Shown one piece after another: positions 3,643 to 13,692 of a stretch of DNA of 32,000 nt. Position 1 is the stretch's first letter, and the number at the start of each line of letters is the position of its first letter. The notes below the pieces were generated by a model. The model saw only the letters and a program-made list of their open reading frames with translations, had not been told where the DNA came from and searched no databases. This stretch comes from Candidatus Helarchaeota ASGARD archaeon Hel_GB_B. Lineage in GTDB: Archaea > Asgardarchaeota > Lokiarchaeia > Helarchaeales > HEL-GB-B. Made by a program: the position numbers and the translations under genes. The DNA lies in NCBI GenBank assembly GCA_005191425.1, contig SUPR01000007.1, positions 27,107 to 59,106 of the forward strand, read 5' to 3'.

Positions 3643-5046
3643 TTAAACATCTTGTTCAATAATATCTTGGATAAATGAAATTATCTCATCAGCCATCTTT
3701 TGCGTTTTACTTTCCTTTTCCGTTTCCACAAAAATTCTAATTATTGGTTCAGTACCTGAAGCTCTTACTAAAAACCAACTAGATTTATTAATAAATTTTA
3801 CACCATCAATTGTATTAAGTTCATATTGCGAATATTTTTCCTTAAGTGCACTTATAATCTTTTCATATTTTTTTTCTGGGTATTTGACACTTGTCTTAAT
3901 CATATAATATTTTCTTGGAAGCTTTTTAACTAATTCAGAAACGCTTGTATCATTTTTTGCAAGAATTTCTAAAATTTTGGCACATGCCATGGGGCCATCT
4001 CGAGCATTGTTAAAATATGGGAGCATTATTCCACCACAACTACCCTCGCCGCCTATTGCATCAACATTTTTCTTTACCAATTCATTTAATTTTGTTGCGA
4101 CAAAAACTTCGCCTACTCGGACTTCTTCATAATTTGCATTATATTTTTTGGCCAGATCATAAAAAATTCTTGAGGAAGCTACGTTCAAAACAAGAGTACA
4201 GTTATCATGTGTTTCTAAATAATCTTTTACTATCAATGCTAAGCCAATGTCTTCACTTAAAACTTTTCCGGTTCCATTTTCAGCTATTACAACTCTATCA
4301 GCATCTAAATCATGTGCAAACCCAATATCTGCTCCGCTACTCTTAACCGCACCGGTTAAATCTGTTAGATTCTCAGGCTTTGGCTCAATTTTCCGAGGAA
4401 AATACGGGTATTCATCATTTAATGTATCATTTATTATTTGGGTCTTACACTGCATTTTAATAAAAAGTTGTGGAGTAACTGTTAGTCCACACCCTGCTAC
4501 TGGATCTAATACTACTTTAAATTTTTTCTTCTTAATTAAAGAAACATCTACATTGTTTAAAATTGAATGTATATATCCACCTATTCCATCCCGTTTTGAA
4601 ATATGCCCTAAATCATTATAACTTACAAAATTAAATGATTTTGTTTTATATACTTCCATAATTCTATTGAGATAATTTGAAGTAATGTATGTCTTCGTAT
4701 CACCATTTATAAATTTGATACCATTCCAATCCTCCGGAATGTGCGACCCAGTAATCATAACTCCGCCATTTGCACCATTATGCTTAATATTATATAGTAA
4801 ACATGGTGATGGACACACACCCAAATTTATAACATTTATTCCAACTGAAATAAGCCCGTTAATTATATCGTTTCTAAGCATCCGACTAGTCAACCGCGTA
4901 TCCCGTGCCAACAACACAGATTTACCCTGACCAAGTAAAGTACCAAATGCTTCCGCCAATTCAAGTGCCATATTCGGCGTAAGCTTTCCTGTCTCTCCCC
5001 TGATGCCAAGTGAGGTAATTATTACATTTGACGACAATATCATCAA
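3643..5046 (-). CDS. Phosphohexomutase (phosphomannomutase / phosphoglucosamine mutase family)
   Basis: ITGSHIP phosphoserine loop, DLDADR metal loop, GGEGSCGG sugar loop, RASGTEPIIR phosphate loop. Confidence 0.93.
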   Translation of the reverse strand: MMILSSNVIITSLGIRGETGKLTPNMALELAEAFGTLLGQGKSVLLARDTRLTSRMLRNDIINGLISVGINVINLGVCPSPCLLYNIKHNGANGGVMITGSHIPEDWNGIKFINGDTKTYITSNYLNRIMEVYKTKSFNFVSYNDLGHISKRDGIGGYIHSILNNVDVSLIKKKKFKVVLDPVAGCGLTVTPQLFIKMQCKTQIINDTLNDEYPYFPRKIEPKPENLTDLTGAVKSSGADIGFAHDLDADRVVIAENGTGKVLSEDIGLALIVKDYLETHDNCTLVLNVASSRIFYDLAKKYNANYEEVRVGEVFVATKLNELVKKNVDAIGGEGSCGGIMLPYFNNARDGPMACAKILEILAKNDTSVSELVKKLPRKYYMIKTSVKYPEKKYEKIISALKEKYSQYELNTIDGVKFINKSSWFLVRASGTEPIIRIFVETEKESKTQKMADEIISFIQDIIEQDV

Positions 5047-5585
5047 AACAATTTTCTTTTTATTTTTAATATATTCAAAATTTATTATAAACCTAAACTT
5101 ATTTTTTTAATCGTGTTTTTTAATTTTTTTTGAGTAAATTAATTAATTTCTAATAATTCATTATTTGATATCCTTTAGACTTATACTATAATAATATGCA
5201 TTTTATTTGTTTCTCCAATATTAATTGAGATATCATAAAAATCTATTATCTTCTTATATTTTTTAATATATTTTTAATTTCTTTTATAGCAAGTTTAGGA
5301 TATTTCTTTCTCTATACTATGATTCATTTAATAGTTGTTCAAGAAATATACGAAAAAATTAAAAAATTTATCTTAAATTTCTTTATTTCAAATTAAATAT
5401 CATATTTTATAATGTCAATCTAAATTTTGGATTTTATCCTTTTTACATTTTTATCTTAAAATAATAAAATAAGTTAGATATTAAAGTTCCTAATCTTTAT
5501 AAAATTAAATTCTTTAATATTTTAATTTAAAATTTTTTTTGACTTTTTCTCTCGAAATATAAAAAAAATATGGTGAAATTGTAAA

Positions 5586-6423
5586 ATGAAAAAAAAAGAT
5601 AGACTTAATTTATTTATAATATTATTACTTTCGTTGATGCTATTGGTTTCATCATCTGCGATAATAATTGGCCATACTTCCTCTACTACTAAAACTAAAA
5701 TCTTGTATATTTATAATGACGACTTAACCACAGCTAATGATTATAAAAAATTTACTTGAATTAAATGATTATTCTGTATCCTTATTGAATACTTCTAGTT
5801 TAGGTTCAATTGATTTTTCCTTATATAATTTGATAATAATTGGTGGAGATACTGCCTATTCAGGGTCTAATTGGGGTTCCAATAATCTATCTCTAATTAT
5901 TCAAAAAGCAAATAAACCAATAATTGGTATATATAGAGGCGGTGCGGTCTATTTTAGCAATATTTCCTTATATATTGGATGGGATAACTCTTGGACTATT
6001 TCTAGTACAAATGGGACAAAAACAATGGAATTTTCAAGCAAACTATATAATTATCCATATCCTTTTAAAGATTATACCAAATATATTCTTTATTCAAAAC
6101 TTGTCCATGCAATTGCAATTTATAATCCAACAAATCTATCAAACATGGAAATAATTGGTCGGCAATTGAATAACGCAAATCATTATCCTATTATTATGGA
6201 AAATTGGAAATATCTCCTCTGAGGTTTTTCTGATGGTCCTACCAATATGACCGTATTTGGTTTAAATATGTATCTTAATCATGTAAATTATATGGTTAAT
6301 CCACCAACTAATACAACAACTCCATCTATTCCAGGTTTCGAACTTTTATATGTGGTCTTGGTGATAATTTCCTTTCTATATATATTAATTCTTATTAAAA
6401 AATCAATGAAAAAACAATTTTAA
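5586..6423 (+). pseudogene. Disrupted secreted/surface protein with signal peptide, flavodoxin/GATase-like domain and PGF-CTERM-like anchor
   Basis: ATG 5586 gives MKKKDRLNLFIILLLSLMLLVSSSAIIIG (signal peptide). An extra A in the A6 run at 5745-5750 shifts the frame (..ANDYK/NLLELNDYSV..). An in-frame TGA sits at 6220-6222 in YLL*GF. The same frame then continues to TTTPSIPGFELLYVVLVIISFLYILILIKKSMKKQF, stop 6421-6423. Confidence 0.8.
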
Positions 6424-6507
6424 CTTTCTTTTTAAAGAATTTTTTTCTTTTATCTTTTTTAAATTTGTATTTTTAATGAAAAATTAATATTCTTTTAAAA
6501 AGTAGTT

Positions 6508-7749
6508 TTATTCACAAACTATTATTGAATCAAGCATATCATCAAGTTTAGGCCTTTCAGCTTTTTCTCTTGGAGCTCCCTCAACTATCTTGATTTCAGG
6601 TATATCATCAGAAATCTGACCTCCTGACCTCGGGCGAGCTGAGGATAAATCAATTCCACTTGGAATATTTTTTAATATATTTGTTATTATATCATTTGAT
6701 AATGACTTAATTTCTTTACTTATTTCAGATGAAATAGTTTGTTTTAATTCAGATACGATTGATTTAGTATCAATTTGAGCTGAAACCTGTATATTTGGGT
6801 ATGCATTATTTATCTGTTGAATTCCTTTGGACAAGGATAATTGGATATCTTGGATCATTTTATCCGACAATGGAATTGCTTTAGTTGGTGCTTCAATCAT
6901 CTCTGCACCACTTTTTTCAGTCTCTTTTCTTTTGAATTGCTCTTTAATTTTATTTAAAAGAATAATAGCATTTTTTACATCTAATCGTCGCTGAACACCT
7001 AATACTTCCAGTTTATTTGTTATTTCATTAATTGATTTTTCGTCCTTACTGTTAATCACTTCTTCTGCCATATTTCTAATATGTTTGATATTAAGTTTGA
7101 CCAGTATTTTTTCGGCTTTTTGGTTATCTGATATTAATATATGGTCAAGGATGGCTTGAAAATATTCTAATTCAGCTAAAAGTGGGTTTTGGTTGCTGAG
7201 AAGATAACCTGCTCTACTATGGAAAGTTAATGCAATATCATATTGCTTTAGATTCTCATTTATTTCAGCGAGCCCCTTACATGCCATTAATATAAAAGGA
7301 GTATAGTCATTGTCGTTTTTTCTACTTTTTGTGATCATTAAAACTTTAAATAGAGATTGAGCAAATTCATTTCTAATTTGATCAAGTTCGGCTTGATTTC
7401 CTGTAGCTAATATCATTGATTCAGCATTTTTAAAAAATTCAAATCCCTGTTTATATAAATTTAAGTCTTTTTTATTTGTTCCGTCAATTAGATATAATTT
7501 CATTGCATTTTGAAGTCTTCTTACTGCCATTAAATAGTTTTGGTCAATTGAAATCGTTTTATTAGTTAAATTACTAGCAAATTGTGGTAATTTCTCGCCT
7601 AAATCTGATAATTCTGTTAAAACTCTTTCTACTGTATTTTCTACATTATTAATCTCTTCTTCTAATTTGAGATCTGATACATCTTTTAAAAGATTTTTAG
7701 TGATATCTTCTATTTCTTCTATTTCCTTATTTGAGGCTTCTTTGTCCAA
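6508..7749 (-). CDS. Helical-repeat (TPR/alpha-SNAP-like) protein with coiled coils and a disordered C-terminal tail
   Basis: 413-aa ORF with a TTG start and a GGTGGA Shine-Dalgarno upstream. The central segment LKQYDIALTFHSRAG...PLLAELEYFQAILDHILISDNQKA resembles SNAP-family repeats by eye. Confidence 0.6.
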   Translation of the reverse strand: MDKEASNKEIEEIEDITKNLLKDVSDLKLEEEINNVENTVERVLTELSDLGEKLPQFASNLTNKTISIDQNYLMAVRRLQNAMKLYLIDGTNKKDLNLYKQGFEFFKNAESMILATGNQAELDQIRNEFAQSLFKVLMITKSRKNDNDYTPFILMACKGLAEINENLKQYDIALTFHSRAGYLLSNQNPLLAELEYFQAILDHILISDNQKAEKILVKLNIKHIRNMAEEVINSKDEKSINEITNKLEVLGVQRRLDVKNAIILLNKIKEQFKRKETEKSGAEMIEAPTKAIPLSDKMIQDIQLSLSKGIQQINNAYPNIQVSAQIDTKSIVSELKQTISSEISKEIKSLSNDIITNILKNIPSGIDLSSARPRSGGQISDDIPEIKIVEGAPREKAERPKLDDMLDSIIVCE

Positions 7750-7902
7750 ACAATTCCACCAATGATGAAAAACTAAATTATCTTTTATTATTCAATATTA
7801 ACTCCAATATAAAAAAATCTTATGTTTGAATAATTAAGGAATAAATTAATTTTAATCCAAATAACGAAGAACTTTTAATTTTAAAAGTAAAAAATATTTA
7901 GA

Positions 7903-8934
7903 TTATTGAGTTTTTGCTACCAGTTCAAAACCCATTGCATTTGAAAGGACTGGATTTTCTGGAATTACTACATGGTCTGGTTTTGATACCAATTTTCCTG
8001 ATATTATTGCTTCTTTAATACTCTCTCCAAAATTGTAAGCTCCACCTCCGCATATAATATAGTATTCCACAAATGCGTCTGGTGGTAAGGTAGAAATTAG
8101 CCGCAACACTTCATCAATTATTATTTTACTAATCTGTTTTGCATAATATTCTCTAATTTCTTTAATTGAATATGTCTGTCCCCCAATCATTACTGTATCT
8201 TTTCCTTTTTTAATTGTCATCATTAAATCAAATGGTTTTATAATGGCTCCAGTTTTTTCTCCTAATGCTTTCGCCATTCGTGATGTTAAAGTATCTGTAG
8301 CCTCTACAAGTGAACCTGAAGCTGTCCGCATAGGACGCCCTTGATACATAGTTAAAATATCAGTACTTCCATGTCCAATATCTATAATTACTGTATCTAC
8401 TGCTGTTTCTTCACCCTTTGATTTTAATACCATATAATATGTCCCAAAAGGTTCTGGAAGTACTAAAGTCTTTTTAATATTTATCGTTAACGATTTAATT
8501 TCATTAGTAGCATCATTGCGTATCTCTATATTTATTTGCCCTTTTAGCATTCTACTTAAATTTTTCATTACATTCATTGAAGTTGCTACTGGTACCCCAG
8601 TACTAACTATAACATCTTCATCTTCGTCTACTAATAGCCCTAACGCAGCTTTTATTGCAATAAATGTTTCTTCTGCCGATTTCATCTGCCCTTCACTTGC
8701 TAATGGCCGCTTCACCTCTGATTGAGTCCGCGCTAGCTCTCCAACATACCATTCTTGATCTTCTTCTATTAAGACCATATTATTTACGAGCGATTTGTCT
8801 AATGACATTCCTGTCCAGCCAGGGTTTGGTTCTCCAATTATACTGGGTATCATATATACTTGAGACCCGCATACCACTTTAATAGTTGATGTACCCAAAT
8901 CAATGCCAACATGTATTGTCATATTACTCATCAT
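7903..8934 (-). CDS. Actin-fold ATPase of the ParM/StbA (Ta0583/AlfA-like) group
   Basis: Phosphate-1 GIDLGTSTIK, STGVP, connect-1 LPEPFG, phosphate-2 IIDIGHGSTD, adenosine CGGGAY, connect-2 NAMGF. 343 aa. Confidence 0.9.
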   Translation of the reverse strand: MMSNMTIHVGIDLGTSTIKVVCGSQVYMIPSIIGEPNPGWTGMSLDKSLVNNMVLIEEDQEWYVGELARTQSEVKRPLASEGQMKSAEETFIAIKAALGLLVDEDEDVIVSTGVPVATSMNVMKNLSRMLKGQINIEIRNDATNEIKSLTINIKKTLVLPEPFGTYYMVLKSKGEETAVDTVIIDIGHGSTDILTMYQGRPMRTASGSLVEATDTLTSRMAKALGEKTGAIIKPFDLMMTIKKGKDTVMIGGQTYSIKEIREYYAKQISKIIIDEVLRLISTLPPDAFVEYYIICGGGAYNFGESIKEAIISGKLVSKPDHVVIPENPVLSNAMGFELVAKTQ

Positions 8935-9126
8935 ATTTCTTATTAGTTAAATAAACATAATAAATTAACATTTATTAATTTTAATTAATTCTATTTATAA
9001 AAATACGAAATTTATTTTTTAATTTAAATAACTTATGAAGTAAAATTTAAATACTATTTTATTATCTTTATCTTAAACGTTTTTAGATAATTATTATATT
9101 AATGAACAATATTGTAGCCCTAAAAA

Positions 9127-9223
9127 AGCGGGTTAGGGAAGCTAGGTCGATCCCACCGGGCTCATATTCAATAGAACTTGATAAGATACCCGGAGATCAG
9201 TGGTTCAAATCCACTACCCGCTA
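9127..9223 (+). tRNA. tRNA-iMet(CAT), initiator, with a 21-nt intron at canonical position 37/38 (9167-9187); CCA not encoded
   Basis: Acceptor stem AGCGGGT/ACCCGCT gives an A1:U72 pair. D-stem has G11:C24. Anticodon stem CCGGG/CCCGG has three consecutive G:C pairs. Anticodon CAT at 9163-9165. T-arm AGTGG-TTCAAAT-CCACT. The 3' end reads A-TCA. Confidence 0.93.
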
Positions 9224-9522
9224 TCATTTTTATTTTTAATTTTAAATTTTTATTAGTCTTAAATTCTACTACTTTAATTAAATAATACCTTTTGTTATGT
9301 AGAATTAACCATATTTTAAAATTTATTACAAAATATTGATGGAATAATTAAGATTCGGATGCGTTTTTCTTATCTATTCTATTTACTTTTTATATTGTTT
9401 ATTTCACTTTTTATAATTCTTTTTTCACGAGTTTAAGTAAAATTTAAAAAATATAAAATATAATAACCATCTAATTACATCACAATTAAAATAATTATTA
9501 CATATTAAAATCTAAAAATAAA

Positions 9523-9723
9523 ATGGACTGTGTTTATATGGGTCTTTGGTCTCAAATAAAAGATTATTTAGGAAAGACATTCTCAATTGACCAATTTATG
9601 GAAATTTTAGGAATGGACGATTCTGATAAGCGAGAAGCTCGAAATGTTTTACACCAACTATATTTGTCTGGCAAAATTAGGCGGATAAATAATTCAAGAA
9701 ATATGTATATTAAATTAGAATAA
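9523..9723 (+). CDS. Small winged helix-turn-helix protein
   Basis: Pattern FSIDQFMEILGM..DKREARNVLHQLYLSGKIRR...MY is typical of wHTH recognition helix plus wing. The start may be ATG 9538. Confidence 0.6.
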   Translation: MDCVYMGLWSQIKDYLGKTFSIDQFMEILGMDDSDKREARNVLHQLYLSGKIRRINNSRNMYIKLE

Positions 9724-9811
9724 TCTTTATCAATTTTCTCTTTATCAATTTTCAAATGACGTCTCTTTTTCAATTTGACAGTTTGATTATTTTTACGTTT
9801 TTAAATTTTAA

Positions 9812-10894
9812 ATGGTGAGAACGAATTTGATTAAATTTGGAGTCGATCACGCCACAAATTCAACTTTATTGATGCACGATTTGGACGCCATTACTAAATC
9901 AGCACTTTTAGCTGACTCTTTGAATTATGATGGTATTTTTTTTATGGACCATTTAAATTGGACACCAACTAATTCTCAAATTGCTAATAATTGGATATTT
10001 TTAAGTTCATTAATCAATAGAATTAAAAAATCTACACTAGGAATATTAGTAACCGACCCTCATAGAAATCATCCCGCTATATTAGCTCAAATGCATGCTA
10101 CATTGGACTTTTTGACTGATGGGCGCTTTATTTTAGGAATAGGTGCAGGAGAAGGTGCCAATATTAACCAATATGGAATTAAATGGGACAGACCTGTTTC
10201 TAGATTAAAAGAGGCTATTGAAGTCATGCAAGAGCTGTGGAACGCAAAAAGTAATAGAAGAGCTAATTATAACGGAGAATTTTTCACATTAAAAGATGCA
10301 TTCCTCCAAATTAAATTCAAAAAATCACCACAATTATGGGTTGCTGGAAATGGTACAAAAACCAGAGAACTAACAGCTAAATATGGGACTGGTTGGTTCC
10401 CTAATTCTATTCCACAAAAAATTTATCGAAGGTGGTCTTCTGAAATTAATGATATGGCTGAAAAATTCGGTAGAAAAAACACTGACATTGTCCACGCATA
10501 CCAAATTTATATCTATTTATCTGAAGACGAAAATGCTGCATTTAATACCCTTAGACCAATTATGACTGTTTTTTCAATGAAAGAAGAGATTATTAAAGAA
10601 TTTAATTTAAAATTCCCTCAAAATATGAATTTTCACAAGATGATGACTCATAATACATTATTAGGAATGAAAAAAGCTCAAAGAAAAGTATTCGATTATT
10701 CTCAATATGTCCCTGATTCAATTCTAAAAGATATGTGCGCCTTTGGTCCGGTCGATAATATCATTTCCAAACTTGAAGATTTTATAAAAGCCGGAGTAGA
10801 ATATTTCGTCTTAATGTTCATTGGAAATAATTATTACGAACAAATAAAAGAATTTAGTTCTAAAATTATCCCATATTTTCAAGAGTATAAATAA
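9812..10894 (+). CDS. LLM-class (luciferase-like, probably F420/flavin-dependent, Mer-related) oxidoreductase
   Basis: FFMDHL, LGILVTDPHRNHPAILAQ..ATLDFLTDGRFILGIGAGE, YNGEFFTL, LWVAGNG, and C-terminal FGPVDNIISKLEDFIKAGV. Confidence 0.88.
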   Translation: MVRTNLIKFGVDHATNSTLLMHDLDAITKSALLADSLNYDGIFFMDHLNWTPTNSQIANNWIFLSSLINRIKKSTLGILVTDPHRNHPAILAQMHATLDFLTDGRFILGIGAGEGANINQYGIKWDRPVSRLKEAIEVMQELWNAKSNRRANYNGEFFTLKDAFLQIKFKKSPQLWVAGNGTKTRELTAKYGTGWFPNSIPQKIYRRWSSEINDMAEKFGRKNTDIVHAYQIYIYLSEDENAAFNTLRPIMTVFSMKEEIIKEFNLKFPQNMNFHKMMTHNTLLGMKKAQRKVFDYSQYVPDSILKDMCAFGPVDNIISKLEDFIKAGVEYFVLMFIGNNYYEQIKEFSSKIIPYFQEYK

Positions 10895-11014
10895 ATAGTT
10901 ATTCAAATCAATAAAAACTGCCCCCAATTTAAAAATAGAATATGGGATTATTTATTCCATTCACATTAGTGTCAAGATATATCTTTTTTCTTCTATTTGA
11001 ATTGTAACTCAAAC

Positions 11015-11335
11015 TTAATCCTCACTAAATAATTTTTCAATATCGAACCTTTTTTTTATTTCAGAATCTAAATAGTTATGAAGTCTTTTAATAGCAGTTT
11101 TATCTAATGAAAAATCCTCAAAATCTTTTTTAGGGAAAAATTTTTTGAGTATTTTTTTCTTTTTTTTAATCTCTACTTCTTCATTCATTTTGTTTTCATT
11201 AATTTCTTCATCTATTAATTTGTTAAGGTCTATCCCCGCAGCTTCTTTAATAAAATTTAAAATTGTATTAAATTGTTCGCTCAAATCTTGAATTGGTTTG
11301 ATACTTTCTATTTTAGTTCTATTTTTTGAGATCAA
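11015..11335 (-). CDS. Hypothetical protein, possibly the C-terminal part of an interrupted gene (same frame as 11393-12022)
   Basis: 106-aa charged helical ORF with a TTG start and no clear RBS. The frame stays open upstream to the TAA at 11393-11395. Confidence 0.45.
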   Translation of the reverse strand: MISKNRTKIESIKPIQDLSEQFNTILNFIKEAAGIDLNKLIDEEINENKMNEEVEIKKKKKILKKFFPKKDFEDFSLDKTAIKRLHNYLDSEIKKRFDIEKLFSED

Positions 11336-11392
11336 TTTAAATATTTCTATTATAAAAATCAGGAATATTAAAATTGTTAAACGAAATAATAT

Positions 11393-12022
11393 TTAATTAA
11401 AATTTGCTATTTCTGTTAAAATATTATCGCTGTCATTTAACTCTTTTTCAAGGTTTAAAGTTAATAAATTATCAATTAATCTAACAAGATATTTTATAGT
11501 AAATTCCAAATAATAAAACAATTTATTCAATAAATTATTTGATAAATCTTCTTGAAATTCATTATTTTCTTTAATATCTTCTAATATATTTAAAGTAGTT
11601 AAAAGATAATCTTCTTGATCTTTTAAAAATTTAGTGAGATCTTTGACTGTTAGATCGGTCTTTCTAATGAATTTAGTGTTTAATTTTTCAATTTTATGGA
11701 ATGAAAATCCCGGAATCTTTTTCATTTCATCTAAAATAAATTTAATAGTGTCAGAAATTAAAGAATTTAATTCATTTTTTGTTATATCTGGTGGTATTGA
11801 AAGTTTCGGAATTATACAATTATTAATTAATAATTCAAAATATTTCTCATATTTAAAATCATGTTGTCCTTTAAATAATGCCTCGGAAAATTCTTTTATT
11901 TCTTTATCTTGTTCAAATAATAGTTTGTTTTTAGTATTACTTGGTTTATTTTCTCTAATATATGTTAAAACTGGTAAAGATGATATTAACACAACTTCAT
12001 TTATGTTAATCATTTCACTCAT
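11393..12022 (-). CDS. Hypothetical all-helical protein
   Basis: 209-aa ORF with no recognised motif. Confidence 0.6.
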   Translation of the reverse strand: MSEMININEVVLISSLPVLTYIRENKPSNTKNKLLFEQDKEIKEFSEALFKGQHDFKYEKYFELLINNCIIPKLSIPPDITKNELNSLISDTIKFILDEMKKIPGFSFHKIEKLNTKFIRKTDLTVKDLTKFLKDQEDYLLTTLNILEDIKENNEFQEDLSNNLLNKLFYYLEFTIKYLVRLIDNLLTLNLEKELNDSDNILTEIANFN

Positions 12023-12240
12023 TATTCATTTACAATTTATAATCTAAATTATAATTTATTCAAAATTCTAAATTAAATTATTATCTTTATTTAATAATTT
12101 TTATGGTAGGCAATTCAAAATTAACTATAAATTCACAAAAAGAATTTTTGATTAATATTTAATAAAAATGATTATAACATTTTTGAAATTAAAATAAGGT
12201 GTTTAACTATAAATAATAAAAAAAGAGAGAAAATTAAAAG

Positions 12241-13692
12241 TTAAGATTGCATTTCTTGCCATAATTCTTCTATTTTTTCTAAATTCCAGCGTTTTTCTAA
12301 AAGAAATGGAATTCCACCACAATCTCGAGGTCCAACTATTACTACCTTATTTGCTGAATCCTCGAGTTCACCTTGAAGCCTTGCAGCTAATCCAGGGATT
12401 ATTATTCCGTGGTGTTTAACTTTTTCATTGACTTTATATTTTTCAATATGTTCTTTTATGGCATCGACATTAAGATCTCCACCGGCGACCGCACATTCTA
12501 CACCTATTCCTTCGGTGTCTATTACTAATAGCCATGAAGGAATTCTGCTCTCTTCCAGATCTCCTTTAACTACAAAATAGGTCATTGTATAATTAGTCGT
12601 CAAAAAGAGCGGAGATTCTGGAGTGGGATTGTTTATTTCATATAATCCTGGTTCTACAGCTGGATTGATTCTTGGGTCTGCGTATACATTTTGTCTAACG
12701 ACTCCTATAGCGAGCATAAACCAATTTTCTGCTGTATGAAATATTAAAAGATTAGTAGCATGGCTTATTAAAATCGTTCCTAGTTTAGCTTCTTCATAAG
12801 ATAAAGTAACTCTTTCACCTAAAGATAGGTTCTTTATATCTTGGTCCATCCAAACTGCTGCAGGTATTCCAATAGTTGGATATCCAATTGATTTGTCTCC
12901 TTTTTCAATCGCCGATTTTTTAAGGATAATATGTCGGCTATATGTTTCACCTATATGTCCTTCACCTGGAATGGTACCTGGGTCGAGTACAATTTTATTT
13001 ATACCTGCATTTTCAAGTGAAACGCATAAACTTTTGAGTTCGTCAAGGTCTGTAGAATATACAGTAATAGGCACATCATATTCTAGGGCTAATTTTGCCA
13101 TTTCTTTCCAATTTTCTTTGGTGGCTGTATACATCAATGGATTTTTGTTTTTAGTTACCTTTAACCCTGCTTCCATAATTTTTGGGTCTAAGGTACACAA
13201 GATAATTGGAAGATCAGTAATAGAAAGTACTTTCTTAACAGCTTGAGCAAATGTATCCGGATTTCCCGATAAAGACCTGACAGCAATCCCTTGCAAATTA
13301 ATTCTATCACCTAATCTTATCCAGTCATAATTCTTAACAAATTCAGTTCTTTGGATCAGGTCGTCTAAATCTTCATCATTGACATCAACAAAAATAGCGG
13401 TCGGACTATAATAAGTAAGTTCATGTCTGTATAAGACTTCTTCTCCGCCTATAGATATCTGTTTTTCACCGGTACCAATTTTAATACTAATTATTGGAGG
13501 AGTTACAAGTTCTTTTAATTTTTTTAATTTTTTAGCGTATTTTTTTTCGCTAAATAATGGTTTACATTCTTTAAGTTCTATTAAATGGTCTAATAATTTT
13601 ACTGCAAAGGACATACATGTTTGTTCTCCACATTGTCCGCAATTGGTCCCGGGTAATAATGGGATAACATTTAAAGGGCTTAATTTTGGCAT
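12241..13692 (-). CDS. cdhE: Acetyl-CoA decarbonylase/synthase gamma subunit (corrinoid Fe-S protein, large subunit)
   Basis: N-terminal [4Fe-4S] motif LPGTNCGQCGEQTCMSFA...C, IGGEEVLYRHE, LTTNYTMTYF, and IIPGLAARLQGELED...VGPRD. GGAGG RBS. Confidence 0.95.
   Translation of the reverse strand: MPKLSPLNVIPLLPGTNCGQCGEQTCMSFAVKLLDHLIELKECKPLFSEKKYAKKLKKLKELVTPPIISIKIGTGEKQISIGGEEVLYRHELTYYSPTAIFVDVNDEDLDDLIQRTEFVKNYDWIRLGDRINLQGIAVRSLSGNPDTFAQAVKKVLSITDLPIILCTLDPKIMEAGLKVTKNKNPLMYTATKENWKEMAKLALEYDVPITVYSTDLDELKSLCVSLENAGINKIVLDPGTIPGEGHIGETYSRHIILKKSAIEKGDKSIGYPTIGIPAAVWMDQDIKNLSLGERVTLSYEEAKLGTILISHATNLLIFHTAENWFMLAIGVVRQNVYADPRINPAVEPGLYEINNPTPESPLFLTTNYTMTYFVVKGDLEESRIPSWLLVIDTEGIGVECAVAGGDLNVDAIKEHIEKYKVNEKVKHHGIIIPGLAARLQGELEDSANKVVIVGPRDCGGIPFLLEKRWNLEKIEELWQEMQS

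Follow-up and report, generated by a model that had tools for sequence, protein, structure and literature searches.

Analysis of a 32,000-nucleotide stretch of contig SUPR01000007.1 from the Asgard archaeon Candidatus Helarchaeota Hel_GB_B (the whole stretch is hereafter called the window) revealed two adjacent genes on the same strand, one for an actin of the ParM/ALP type, designated ALP1, and the other for a helical protein, referred to as the adaptor. With slightly better than even confidence, we interpret this pair as a chromosomal, ParMR-derived cytoskeletal module of two proteins, in which ALP1 forms filaments and the adaptor, carrying a head of a non-DNA type, binds the actin with its tail in a cleft. 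In this model the free tail, presented on a linker of about 35 residues, is predicted to insert into the hydrophobic IA/IIA cleft of ALP1, and the place that the DNA-binding head occupies in ParR would be taken by a coiled coil of acidic character together with a SNAP/TPR-like solenoid. The adaptor would then link protomers or the ends of filaments to a cargo, either a protein or something associated with the membrane, or would regulate nucleation or capping. Since the head consists of a solenoid and a coiled coil, handling of protein or membrane cargo, or filament regulation, is most likely the function, rather than DNA segregation.

ALP1 is a protein of 343 residues encoded at 7903-8934 (minus strand, ATG start). 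It matched two Pfam models above their cut-offs, ALP_N (64.6 bits, cut-off 26.3; E 1.6e-17) and MreB-like_C, the C-terminal domain of archaeal Ta0583-type actins (50.3 bits, cut-off 27.8; E 4.4e-13). The nucleotide motifs are intact, including phosphate-1 (GIDLGTSTIK), the Glu-Pro of connect-1 (E161-P162), phosphate-2 (DIGHGSTD) and the adenosine motif (GGG at 296-298), and the residues D12/G14/T15, E161-P162, D185/G187/G189/D192 and G296-G298 were invariant among 54 homologues. An initial reading of the window, made from the sequence alone and called here the sequence-only reading, had described this gene as a complete actin-fold ATPase of the ParM/StbA type, in agreement with both the Pfam matches and the motifs. 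From the family and the intact motifs, we infer that ALP1 is an ATP-dependent, filament-forming actin.

The relationship of ALP1 to known actins was examined by comparing a profile of the 54 homologues with PDB sequences. The profile matched pCBH ParM (1.3e-13), another ParM (1.1e-12) and Dh-cParM1 (7e-11), followed by CorM (1e-7), Ta0583 (3e-7) and MamK-type entries (about 1e-6), and no MreB, FtsA, actin or enzyme ASKHA chain was detected at E <= 0.001. The placement of ALP1 with respect to MreB, FtsA, AlfA and lokiactin is thus a profile ranking, not a phylogeny. Grouping with non-polymerizing ASKHA enzymes, raised beforehand as an objection to a cytoskeletal role, was not observed in this ranking, the top of which is occupied by ParMs, CorM, Ta0583 and MamK. 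All NCBIfam matches were below threshold (PRTRC protein D, plasmid ParM, FcmB and MamK), and the score against the plasmid ParM equivalog, PRK13917, was 42.7 bits for a cut-off of 417; by these scores, ALP1 is a member of the broad ParM/ALP group, not an orthologue of plasmid ParM. More than 140 homologues were found at 50-85% identity, in sources named Loki-, Hel-, Heimdall-, Thor-, Njord- and Sigynarchaeota. Identity at this level across Asgard classes is unusually high for a ParM-type protein, and speaks for a role in the cell rather than on a plasmid.

The adaptor gene is located at 6508-7749 (minus strand, TTG start), separated from the ALP1 stop by an intergenic gap of 153 bp (7750-7902, minus strand), and encodes an acidic (pI 5.2), all-helical protein of 413 residues. 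The layout claimed in the sequence-only reading, with both genes on one strand at these coordinates, the 153-bp spacing and a helical partner of this length, was confirmed exactly. The TTG start is credible, because GGTGG lies at 7760-7756, 6 nt upstream, and because the adaptor homologues begin at the same position. Within the gap, a T6 run directly follows the ALP1 stop, and a T7 run is followed by a TATA-like element, TTTATATT (7817-7806), about 60 nt before the adaptor start, so that the adaptor may have its own promoter. Among relatives this spacing varies between 60 and about 600 nt, and ALP1 and the adaptor may or may not be co-transcribed.

The adaptor of the window had no match in Pfam, NCBIfam or PDB sequences, and no Pfam domain was detected in 26 members of its family, neither a ribbon-helix-helix (RHH) domain nor any other DNA-binding family. 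An AlphaFold2 (AF2) model based on 26 homologues was all-helical, with a predicted local distance difference test score (pLDDT) of 73, and allowed the protein to be divided into five segments, all encoded on the minus strand. Residues 1-62 (7564-7749) form acidic long helices (3-25, 29-34 and 36-62) of lower pLDDT and net charge -9; they are probably a coiled coil, which could drive oligomerization. Residues 65-280 (6910-7557) form a SNAP/TPR-like alpha-solenoid with a confident core at 65-277 (pLDDT about 90), and residues 290-360 (6670-6882) form a conserved pair of helices (296-316 and 328-360) of low pLDDT. A disordered linker of about 35 residues, rich in Pro, Gly and Ser, follows at 361-395 (6565-6669; pLDDT below 50 at 361-392), and the protein is closed by the C-terminal tail at 396-413 (6511-6564; KAERPKLDDMLDSIIVCE), predicted to be an actin-binding peptide on the basis of its conservation and of the complex prediction described below. 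The flexible tail had been proposed before any model was made, together with its ending, and both were recovered: the sequence ends in ...RPKLDDMLDSIIVCE, and the AF2 model has a disordered stretch at 361-400, followed by a short terminal helix. No basic segment was found in the adaptor, which is acidic throughout. From this composition and the absence of a recognizable domain, we infer that the adaptor has lost DNA binding.

In the alignment of adaptors the tail is the most conserved part, the residues R399, P400, K401, L402, D403, D404, M405, D407, S408, I410, V411 and E413 being invariant or at least 90% conserved. Directly before the stop codon, the tails read RPKLDDMLDSIIVSE in consensus (RPKLDDMLDSIIVxE). 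The helical pair at 290-360 is also more conserved than the solenoid, with L294, S295, I310, P318, T328, E334, E346 and S351 among its invariant or near-invariant columns.

The same tail was found on a different protein encoded beside a related actin. In a Heimdall-group lineage (L001, a 1.55-Mb contig), an actin about 52% identical to ALP1 is the first gene of a tight row of four at 6001-9625 (plus strand), followed by genes for a 218-residue adaptor, a 371-residue helical protein with a C-terminal CxxC...CxxC zinc ribbon, and a 223-residue Arf/Ras-like GTPase. With a pI of 9.6, the 218-residue adaptor is basic; its N-terminus is K-rich, it contains a strand-helix-helix segment, and it ends in ...DRPSLDDAIGAIVVVE followed by the stop. 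It represents a Heimdall-type family of 79 clusters, ending in ...RPSLDDAIGAIVVVE and encoded beside the related actin. When the two adaptor families were compared by hhalign, only the last 35 columns were aligned (prob 82%, E 1.1e-5), and the helical pair at 290-360 showed no similarity to the Heimdall-type adaptor. In the joint alignment of both tails R, P, L, D and V are invariant, giving the motif RP.LDD....I.V.E. Because the match is confined to the tail and both proteins are encoded beside the same actin family, two otherwise unrelated proteins share one C-terminal peptide. The Heimdall-group module is like the Loki/Hel form in its related actin and its tail motif, but has a basic adaptor of 218 residues in a four-gene operon with a GTPase. 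In the Loki/Hel form the adaptor is a solenoid protein, a GTPase is lacking, and a degenerate paralogue of the actin (ALP2), transcribed divergently, is usually present.

Three further relationships were considered for these proteins and were not supported. Homology between residues 284-413 of the Loki adaptor and the Heimdall adaptor beyond the tail was rejected on the hhalign result above, and homology between the Loki solenoid and P0158, the third gene of the Heimdall operon, was rejected as well (BLAST E 0.77; hhalign prob 0.2%). A RHH domain in the Heimdall-type adaptor, suggested by eye from a strand and helices at 83-96 and 102-118, was not confirmed and is a possibility only: no such domain was detected by Pfam in 32 members or by a profile search of the PDB, and the best structural match had a Z of 4.7.

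The tail and the actin were predicted to form a complex. ALP1 (alignment of 54 rows) was modelled together with adaptor residues 366-413 (26 rows), and gave interface scores (ipSAE) of 0.79, 0.78 and 0.79, the best of three controls being 0.00. Agreement of contacts between the runs was at least 90%, with a partner pLDDT of at least 74. In calibration, 58 of 80 solved complexes and 2 of 110 mismatched pairs attained the ipSAE mark, counts which apply only roughly here because our own alignments were used. An interface between the ATPase and the last residues of its partner, as had been anticipated from the sequence, was thus predicted at a level well above the controls. The actin contacts with the tail (396-413) fall at 120-131, 155-180, 198-201, 286-290, 314-317 and 339-343, and those on the adaptor at 388, 390, 396-397, 399-406 and 408-413; residues 409-412 pair with actin strand 156-159, while L402 packs on 167-179. 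The contacted segments of ALP1 (connect-1 around E161-P162, a IIA loop and the C-terminal helix) presumably line the IA/IIA cleft. This cleft is the site of ParR on ParM and of WH2-type ligands on actin, and the tail is accordingly placed, by prediction, in a ParR-like position. The interface residues of ALP1 are mostly conserved in lineages both with and without a known tail; a substitution of M123 by S, seen in two lineages without a detected tail, is too slight to carry weight.

The two genes stay together in relatives. A total of 36 adaptor homologues were found at 38-65% identity, all from Loki/Hel-type sources, and in all 11 informative Loki/Hel loci (the window, L003, L006, L035, L038 and L059-L064) ALP1 is directly followed by the adaptor gene on the same strand, while the outer neighbours vary between loci. 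Conservation of the gene pair, proposed as a check on the sequence-only reading, was therefore observed in every informative relative.

Beyond these loci the distribution is patchy. An ALP1-type actin was detected in 39 of 201 sampled Asgard species genomes; the largest family of the class to which the window belongs has it in only 2 of 40 genomes, and four other families have it in 20 of 21, 5 of 5, 6 of 7 and 3 of 3. The solenoid adaptor is clearly present in only 2 of the 201 genomes, and the Heimdall-type adaptor was found in only one genome family of this sample, again adjoining the actin. In the internal tree of the actin family, ALP2 stands apart at 100/100 and the adaptor-linked Loki clade is supported at 92/69, the deeper order being weak. 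An exhaustive search with the C-terminal 130 residues of the adaptor gave only 13 matches among 1.84 billion representatives. P0247, a protein of 1752 residues with a repeated surface-protein domain, is a false positive.

The name given to the solenoid in the sequence-only reading, SNAP-like, applies at most to the fold and not to the family. By VIA-align, the adaptor core matched Sec17 with Z 14.2 (root-mean-square deviation 2.6 over 166 residues) and gamma-SNAP with Z 13.5, followed by the proteasome lid, HAP40 and other TPR-like solenoids. Foldseek gave weak matches to alpha-SNAP/Sec17 (E 1e-3, TM 0.28/0.40) and to BtubC (8e-3), and a structural search of the ESM Atlas gave TPR proteins only, with TM below 0.4. 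The nearest clusters in the ESM Atlas feature search were Asgard SNAP/TPR proteins (score 0.85), a lead only. Helical repeat models typically reach Z of about 13-14 through architecture alone. No match to Pfam SNAP (PF14938) was found at E <= 1 in any of the 26 adaptor family members, and none of them clearly matched a TPR family. Because Pfam SNAP is absent from the whole family, SNAP-like is a fair description of the modelled shape, not a family assignment. In shape, residues 65-280 resemble alpha/gamma-SNAP (Sec17) and BtubC, the best structural matches, but the adaptor differs from SNAPs in its coiled-coil N-terminus, its long linker and its tail, and its locus is without SNARE or NSF context. 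Binding of a TPR protein to a cytoskeletal filament of prokaryotes has a precedent in BtubC of bacterial mini-microtubules (PDB title 5o09).

Several observations weigh against a tail-in-cleft module of ALP1 and the adaptor. Neither adaptor type was found in most of the actin-bearing Asgard genomes sampled, and in five actin-bearing genomes of other lineages the tail profile gave only chance-level matches (E >= 0.05). Conversely, some divergent, tail-bearing proteins (P0244, P0245 and the short open reading frame (ORF) of L066) are not beside an actin in the available DNA, and no ALP1 was found in the genome of L066 with this query. The T-runs and the TATA-like element of the 153-bp gap may allow the two genes to be transcribed separately. 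ParM-ParR peptide complexes have already been solved, so the prediction may pass by likeness; what it points to is a ParR-like mode of binding, not that this copy binds. For the head, likeness to SNAP/TPR proteins falls within the range of a common architecture, so protein binding is assigned to the solenoid only at the level of the class.

Three other explanations were weighed on the same evidence. In the first, which we regard as rather unlikely, the adaptor is a soluble actin regulator instead of a cargo adaptor, sequestering, capping or nucleating at the barbed-end cleft, with the solenoid serving only for oligomerization or regulation. Such a protein would follow a WH2/profilin-like logic, or that of a ParR acting as a nucleation or depolymerization factor. 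It would use the same predicted cleft binding, and no cargo or membrane-binding element was identified in the adaptor. Some ParRs are reported to act as nucleation or depolymerization factors for their ParM (bioRxiv 10.1101/2022.03.07.483215; PMC12270681), which lends support to this explanation. For pure cleft blocking, however, a 280-residue conserved solenoid plus coiled coil seems excessive, and interchangeable heads on one tail across lineages fit better with tethering.

The second is DNA segregation of type II (ParMRC-like), acting on the chromosome or on an integrated element, with the adaptor as a very divergent ParR that would bind a centromere by means of an unrecognized DNA-binding region, for instance residues 290-360. 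The nearest solved relatives of ALP1 are indeed plasmid and chromosomal ParMs, the tail is common to the basic, K-rich Heimdall-group protein, of which the strand-helix-helix pattern is compatible with RHH, and residues 290-360 are highly conserved. We nevertheless hold this function to be improbable, since the adaptor is acidic along its whole length, no DNA-binding family was matched by it, its similarity to the Heimdall-type protein by hhalign is confined to the tail, and RHH is unconfirmed even in that protein (no Pfam match, best structural Z as given above). The surroundings of the two genes speak in the same direction: the neighbours are housekeeping genes, and neither an array resembling iterons or a centromere nor a gene for replication or an integrase was found there. 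The third, that the two genes are neighbours without physical interaction, the predicted interface being a false positive and the tail binding something else, such as an AAA+ ATPase, as SNAP proteins do, or being a degradation or localization signal, draws on the fold and language-model leads to SNAP-like proteins, on the tail-bearing proteins found away from actin and on the 2 mismatched pairs that reached the ipSAE mark, but deserves very little credence in view of the pair conserved at 11 of 11 informative loci despite changing outer neighbours, the tail recurring on a different protein again beside a related actin, the three controls at 0.00 against 0.79 and the lack of any Pfam SNAP match in the adaptor family.

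The proposed ParMR-derived module with a tail-in-cleft adaptor can be compared with known systems. ParMRC (R1, pSK41 and pCBH) and the chromosomal ParMs (Dh-cParM1 and Cb-cParM) belong to the same ParM/ALP actin group as ALP1. As in ParMRC, the adaptor gene is directly downstream and the adaptor has a conserved end peptide on a flexible linker, with predicted binding at the IA/IIA cleft. In contrast, the Asgard adaptor has 413 residues, is acidic and is composed of a coiled coil and a solenoid, whereas ParR is a small RHH dimer; the host of ALP1 is archaeal, no parC-like repeats were found, and the PRK13917 cut-off is far from being reached. In ParMRC the free C-terminal peptide of the adaptor is reported to bind the actin, and the cParMs are chromosomal, a location common to the ALP1 module (PMC12270681).

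The nearest precedent is CorMR of Anabaena, a chromosomal ParMR repurposed as a cortical cell-shape cytoskeleton (bioRxiv 10.1101/2025.06.27.661541; PDB 9rmi). CorR has lost DNA binding, binds the actin with an essential, unmodified C-terminal peptide and recruits the filaments to the membrane (bioRxiv 10.1101/2025.06.27.661541). The Asgard module is like CorMR in having a chromosomal ParM-type actin (with CorM among the PDB matches, as above), and would be like it in an adaptor that binds this actin by a tail peptide but not DNA, and in serving the host as a cytoskeleton and not in partition. CorMR is bacterial and the Asgard module archaeal. CorR keeps the (RHH)2 fold and has gained an N-terminal amphipathic membrane helix, whereas the head of the Asgard adaptor is of a different fold; no membrane helix was identified in the latter, for which no amphipathic-helix predictor was run, and its acidic N-terminal helix is unlike that of CorR. 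Because the whole adaptor head is of a different fold, the change is larger than in CorMR.

The presence of lineage-specific adaptors with the same tail suggests one conserved socket on the actin and interchangeable heads. Extending this view, we tentatively consider, as a possibility that falls short of even chances, that Asgard archaea possess, in addition to lokiactin, another actin cytoskeleton derived from ParM, in which the IA/IIA socket would accept lineage-specific heads on a common tail: a basic, possibly DNA-binding head in the Heimdall group, and in the Loki/Hel group a solenoid moving or anchoring protein or membrane cargo. If this socket exists, it would give a prokaryotic example of modular actin-adaptor logic, and one from the organisms most closely related to eukaryotes.

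Studies of the cytoskeleton in Asgard archaea have focused on lokiactin, actin-related proteins, profilin, gelsolin and tubulins. In the Lokiarchaeum ossiferum paper, actins were surveyed with lokiactin queries only, and no description of ParM-type actins or their adaptors in Asgard archaea was found in full-text literature searches. That the system was not found in 38 of the 40 genomes sampled from the largest family of this class may explain why it escaped study. A ParMR-like module with an exchanged adaptor head appears to be present in Asgard archaea. If the tail does occupy the cleft, this would be the third case of a partition machine turned into a cytoskeleton of the host, following CorMR and the chromosomal ParMs of bacteria, and one in which the adaptor head was exchanged outright; we know of no earlier case from archaea. 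An experimental handle is given by a peptide of 18 residues and a soluble actin.

The degenerate paralogue ALP2 is 38% identical to ALP1. In the window genome it is on another contig (L005 1483-2523, minus strand; G000:C179:11469-12482), while at most adaptor loci it is upstream of ALP1 and divergently transcribed from it, as at L003 (3749-4798), L035 (2658-3707) and L038 (2160-3128), all on the minus strand. The nucleotide motifs of ALP2 are degenerate, phosphate-2 being changed from DIGHGSTD to SLDLLTE and the adenosine GGG to GEA, and ALP2 is probably a non-hydrolysing subunit. In relatives, ALP2 is followed by proteins with a coiled coil and a RWD/UEV-like core (YP..KP..F).

Several minor observations were made at the actin loci of other lineages. 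At L048, a complete 3.1-Mb genome of the family with the actin in 20 of 21 genomes, a gene for a 253-residue, small-GTPase-like protein (5380-6138, plus strand) is directly upstream, on the same strand, of the ALP gene at 6256-7302, and no tail-bearing adaptor was found within 6 kb of this ALP. At L049, from another Asgard family, an ORF of 125 residues (7899-8273, minus strand) converges on the ALP gene and contains an internal motif resembling the tail, LESVLDSIIVAE, with a charged extension after it. This ORF, which overlaps the start of a 445-residue gene without an assigned family, may be a third form of adaptor. Near P0244, at L037 5033-6178 (plus strand), there is a gene for a 381-residue coiled-coil protein, of which the C-terminal 90 residues or so look gelsolin-like by eye.

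The window (G000:C160:27107-59106) is part of a 3.54-Mb Asgard metagenome-assembled genome, 93.7% complete and Lokiarchaeia/Helarchaeales-like, and the contig carrying it is at least 59 kb long. The relatives of its proteins come from sources named Promethearchaeota/Lokiarchaeia and Helarchaeota. The genes around the pair include those for phosphoglucomutase (PGM/PMM), a luciferase-like oxidoreductase, the carbon monoxide dehydrogenase/acetyl-CoA synthase (CODH/ACS) operon, aldehyde:ferredoxin oxidoreductase (AOR) and a paralogue of elongation factor 2 (EF-2). No integrase or replication gene was seen among the genes of the window, and its GC content is unremarkable. No parC-, centromere- or iteron-like array was found at 6200-9850 or 5000-12500, where only short AT-rich, low-complexity repeats were detected. 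The housekeeping setting with a tRNA and without replication protein, integrase or iterons, as first described from the sequence, was thus borne out by annotation and by the repeat searches, and signs of a recently integrated plasmid, which would have undermined a chromosomal module, were not seen in this setting. The tRNA is a tRNA-Met(CAT) at 9127-9223 (plus strand; Rfam 51.9 bits), with an intron of 21 nt after the anticodon loop; it was missed by ARAGORN under default settings and detected with introns allowed. Two ORFs of the minus strand (11015-12022), of 106 and 209 residues and without Pfam match, lie between the CODH/ACS operon and the luciferase-like gene, in the kilobase with the highest AT content of the window (GC 0.21).

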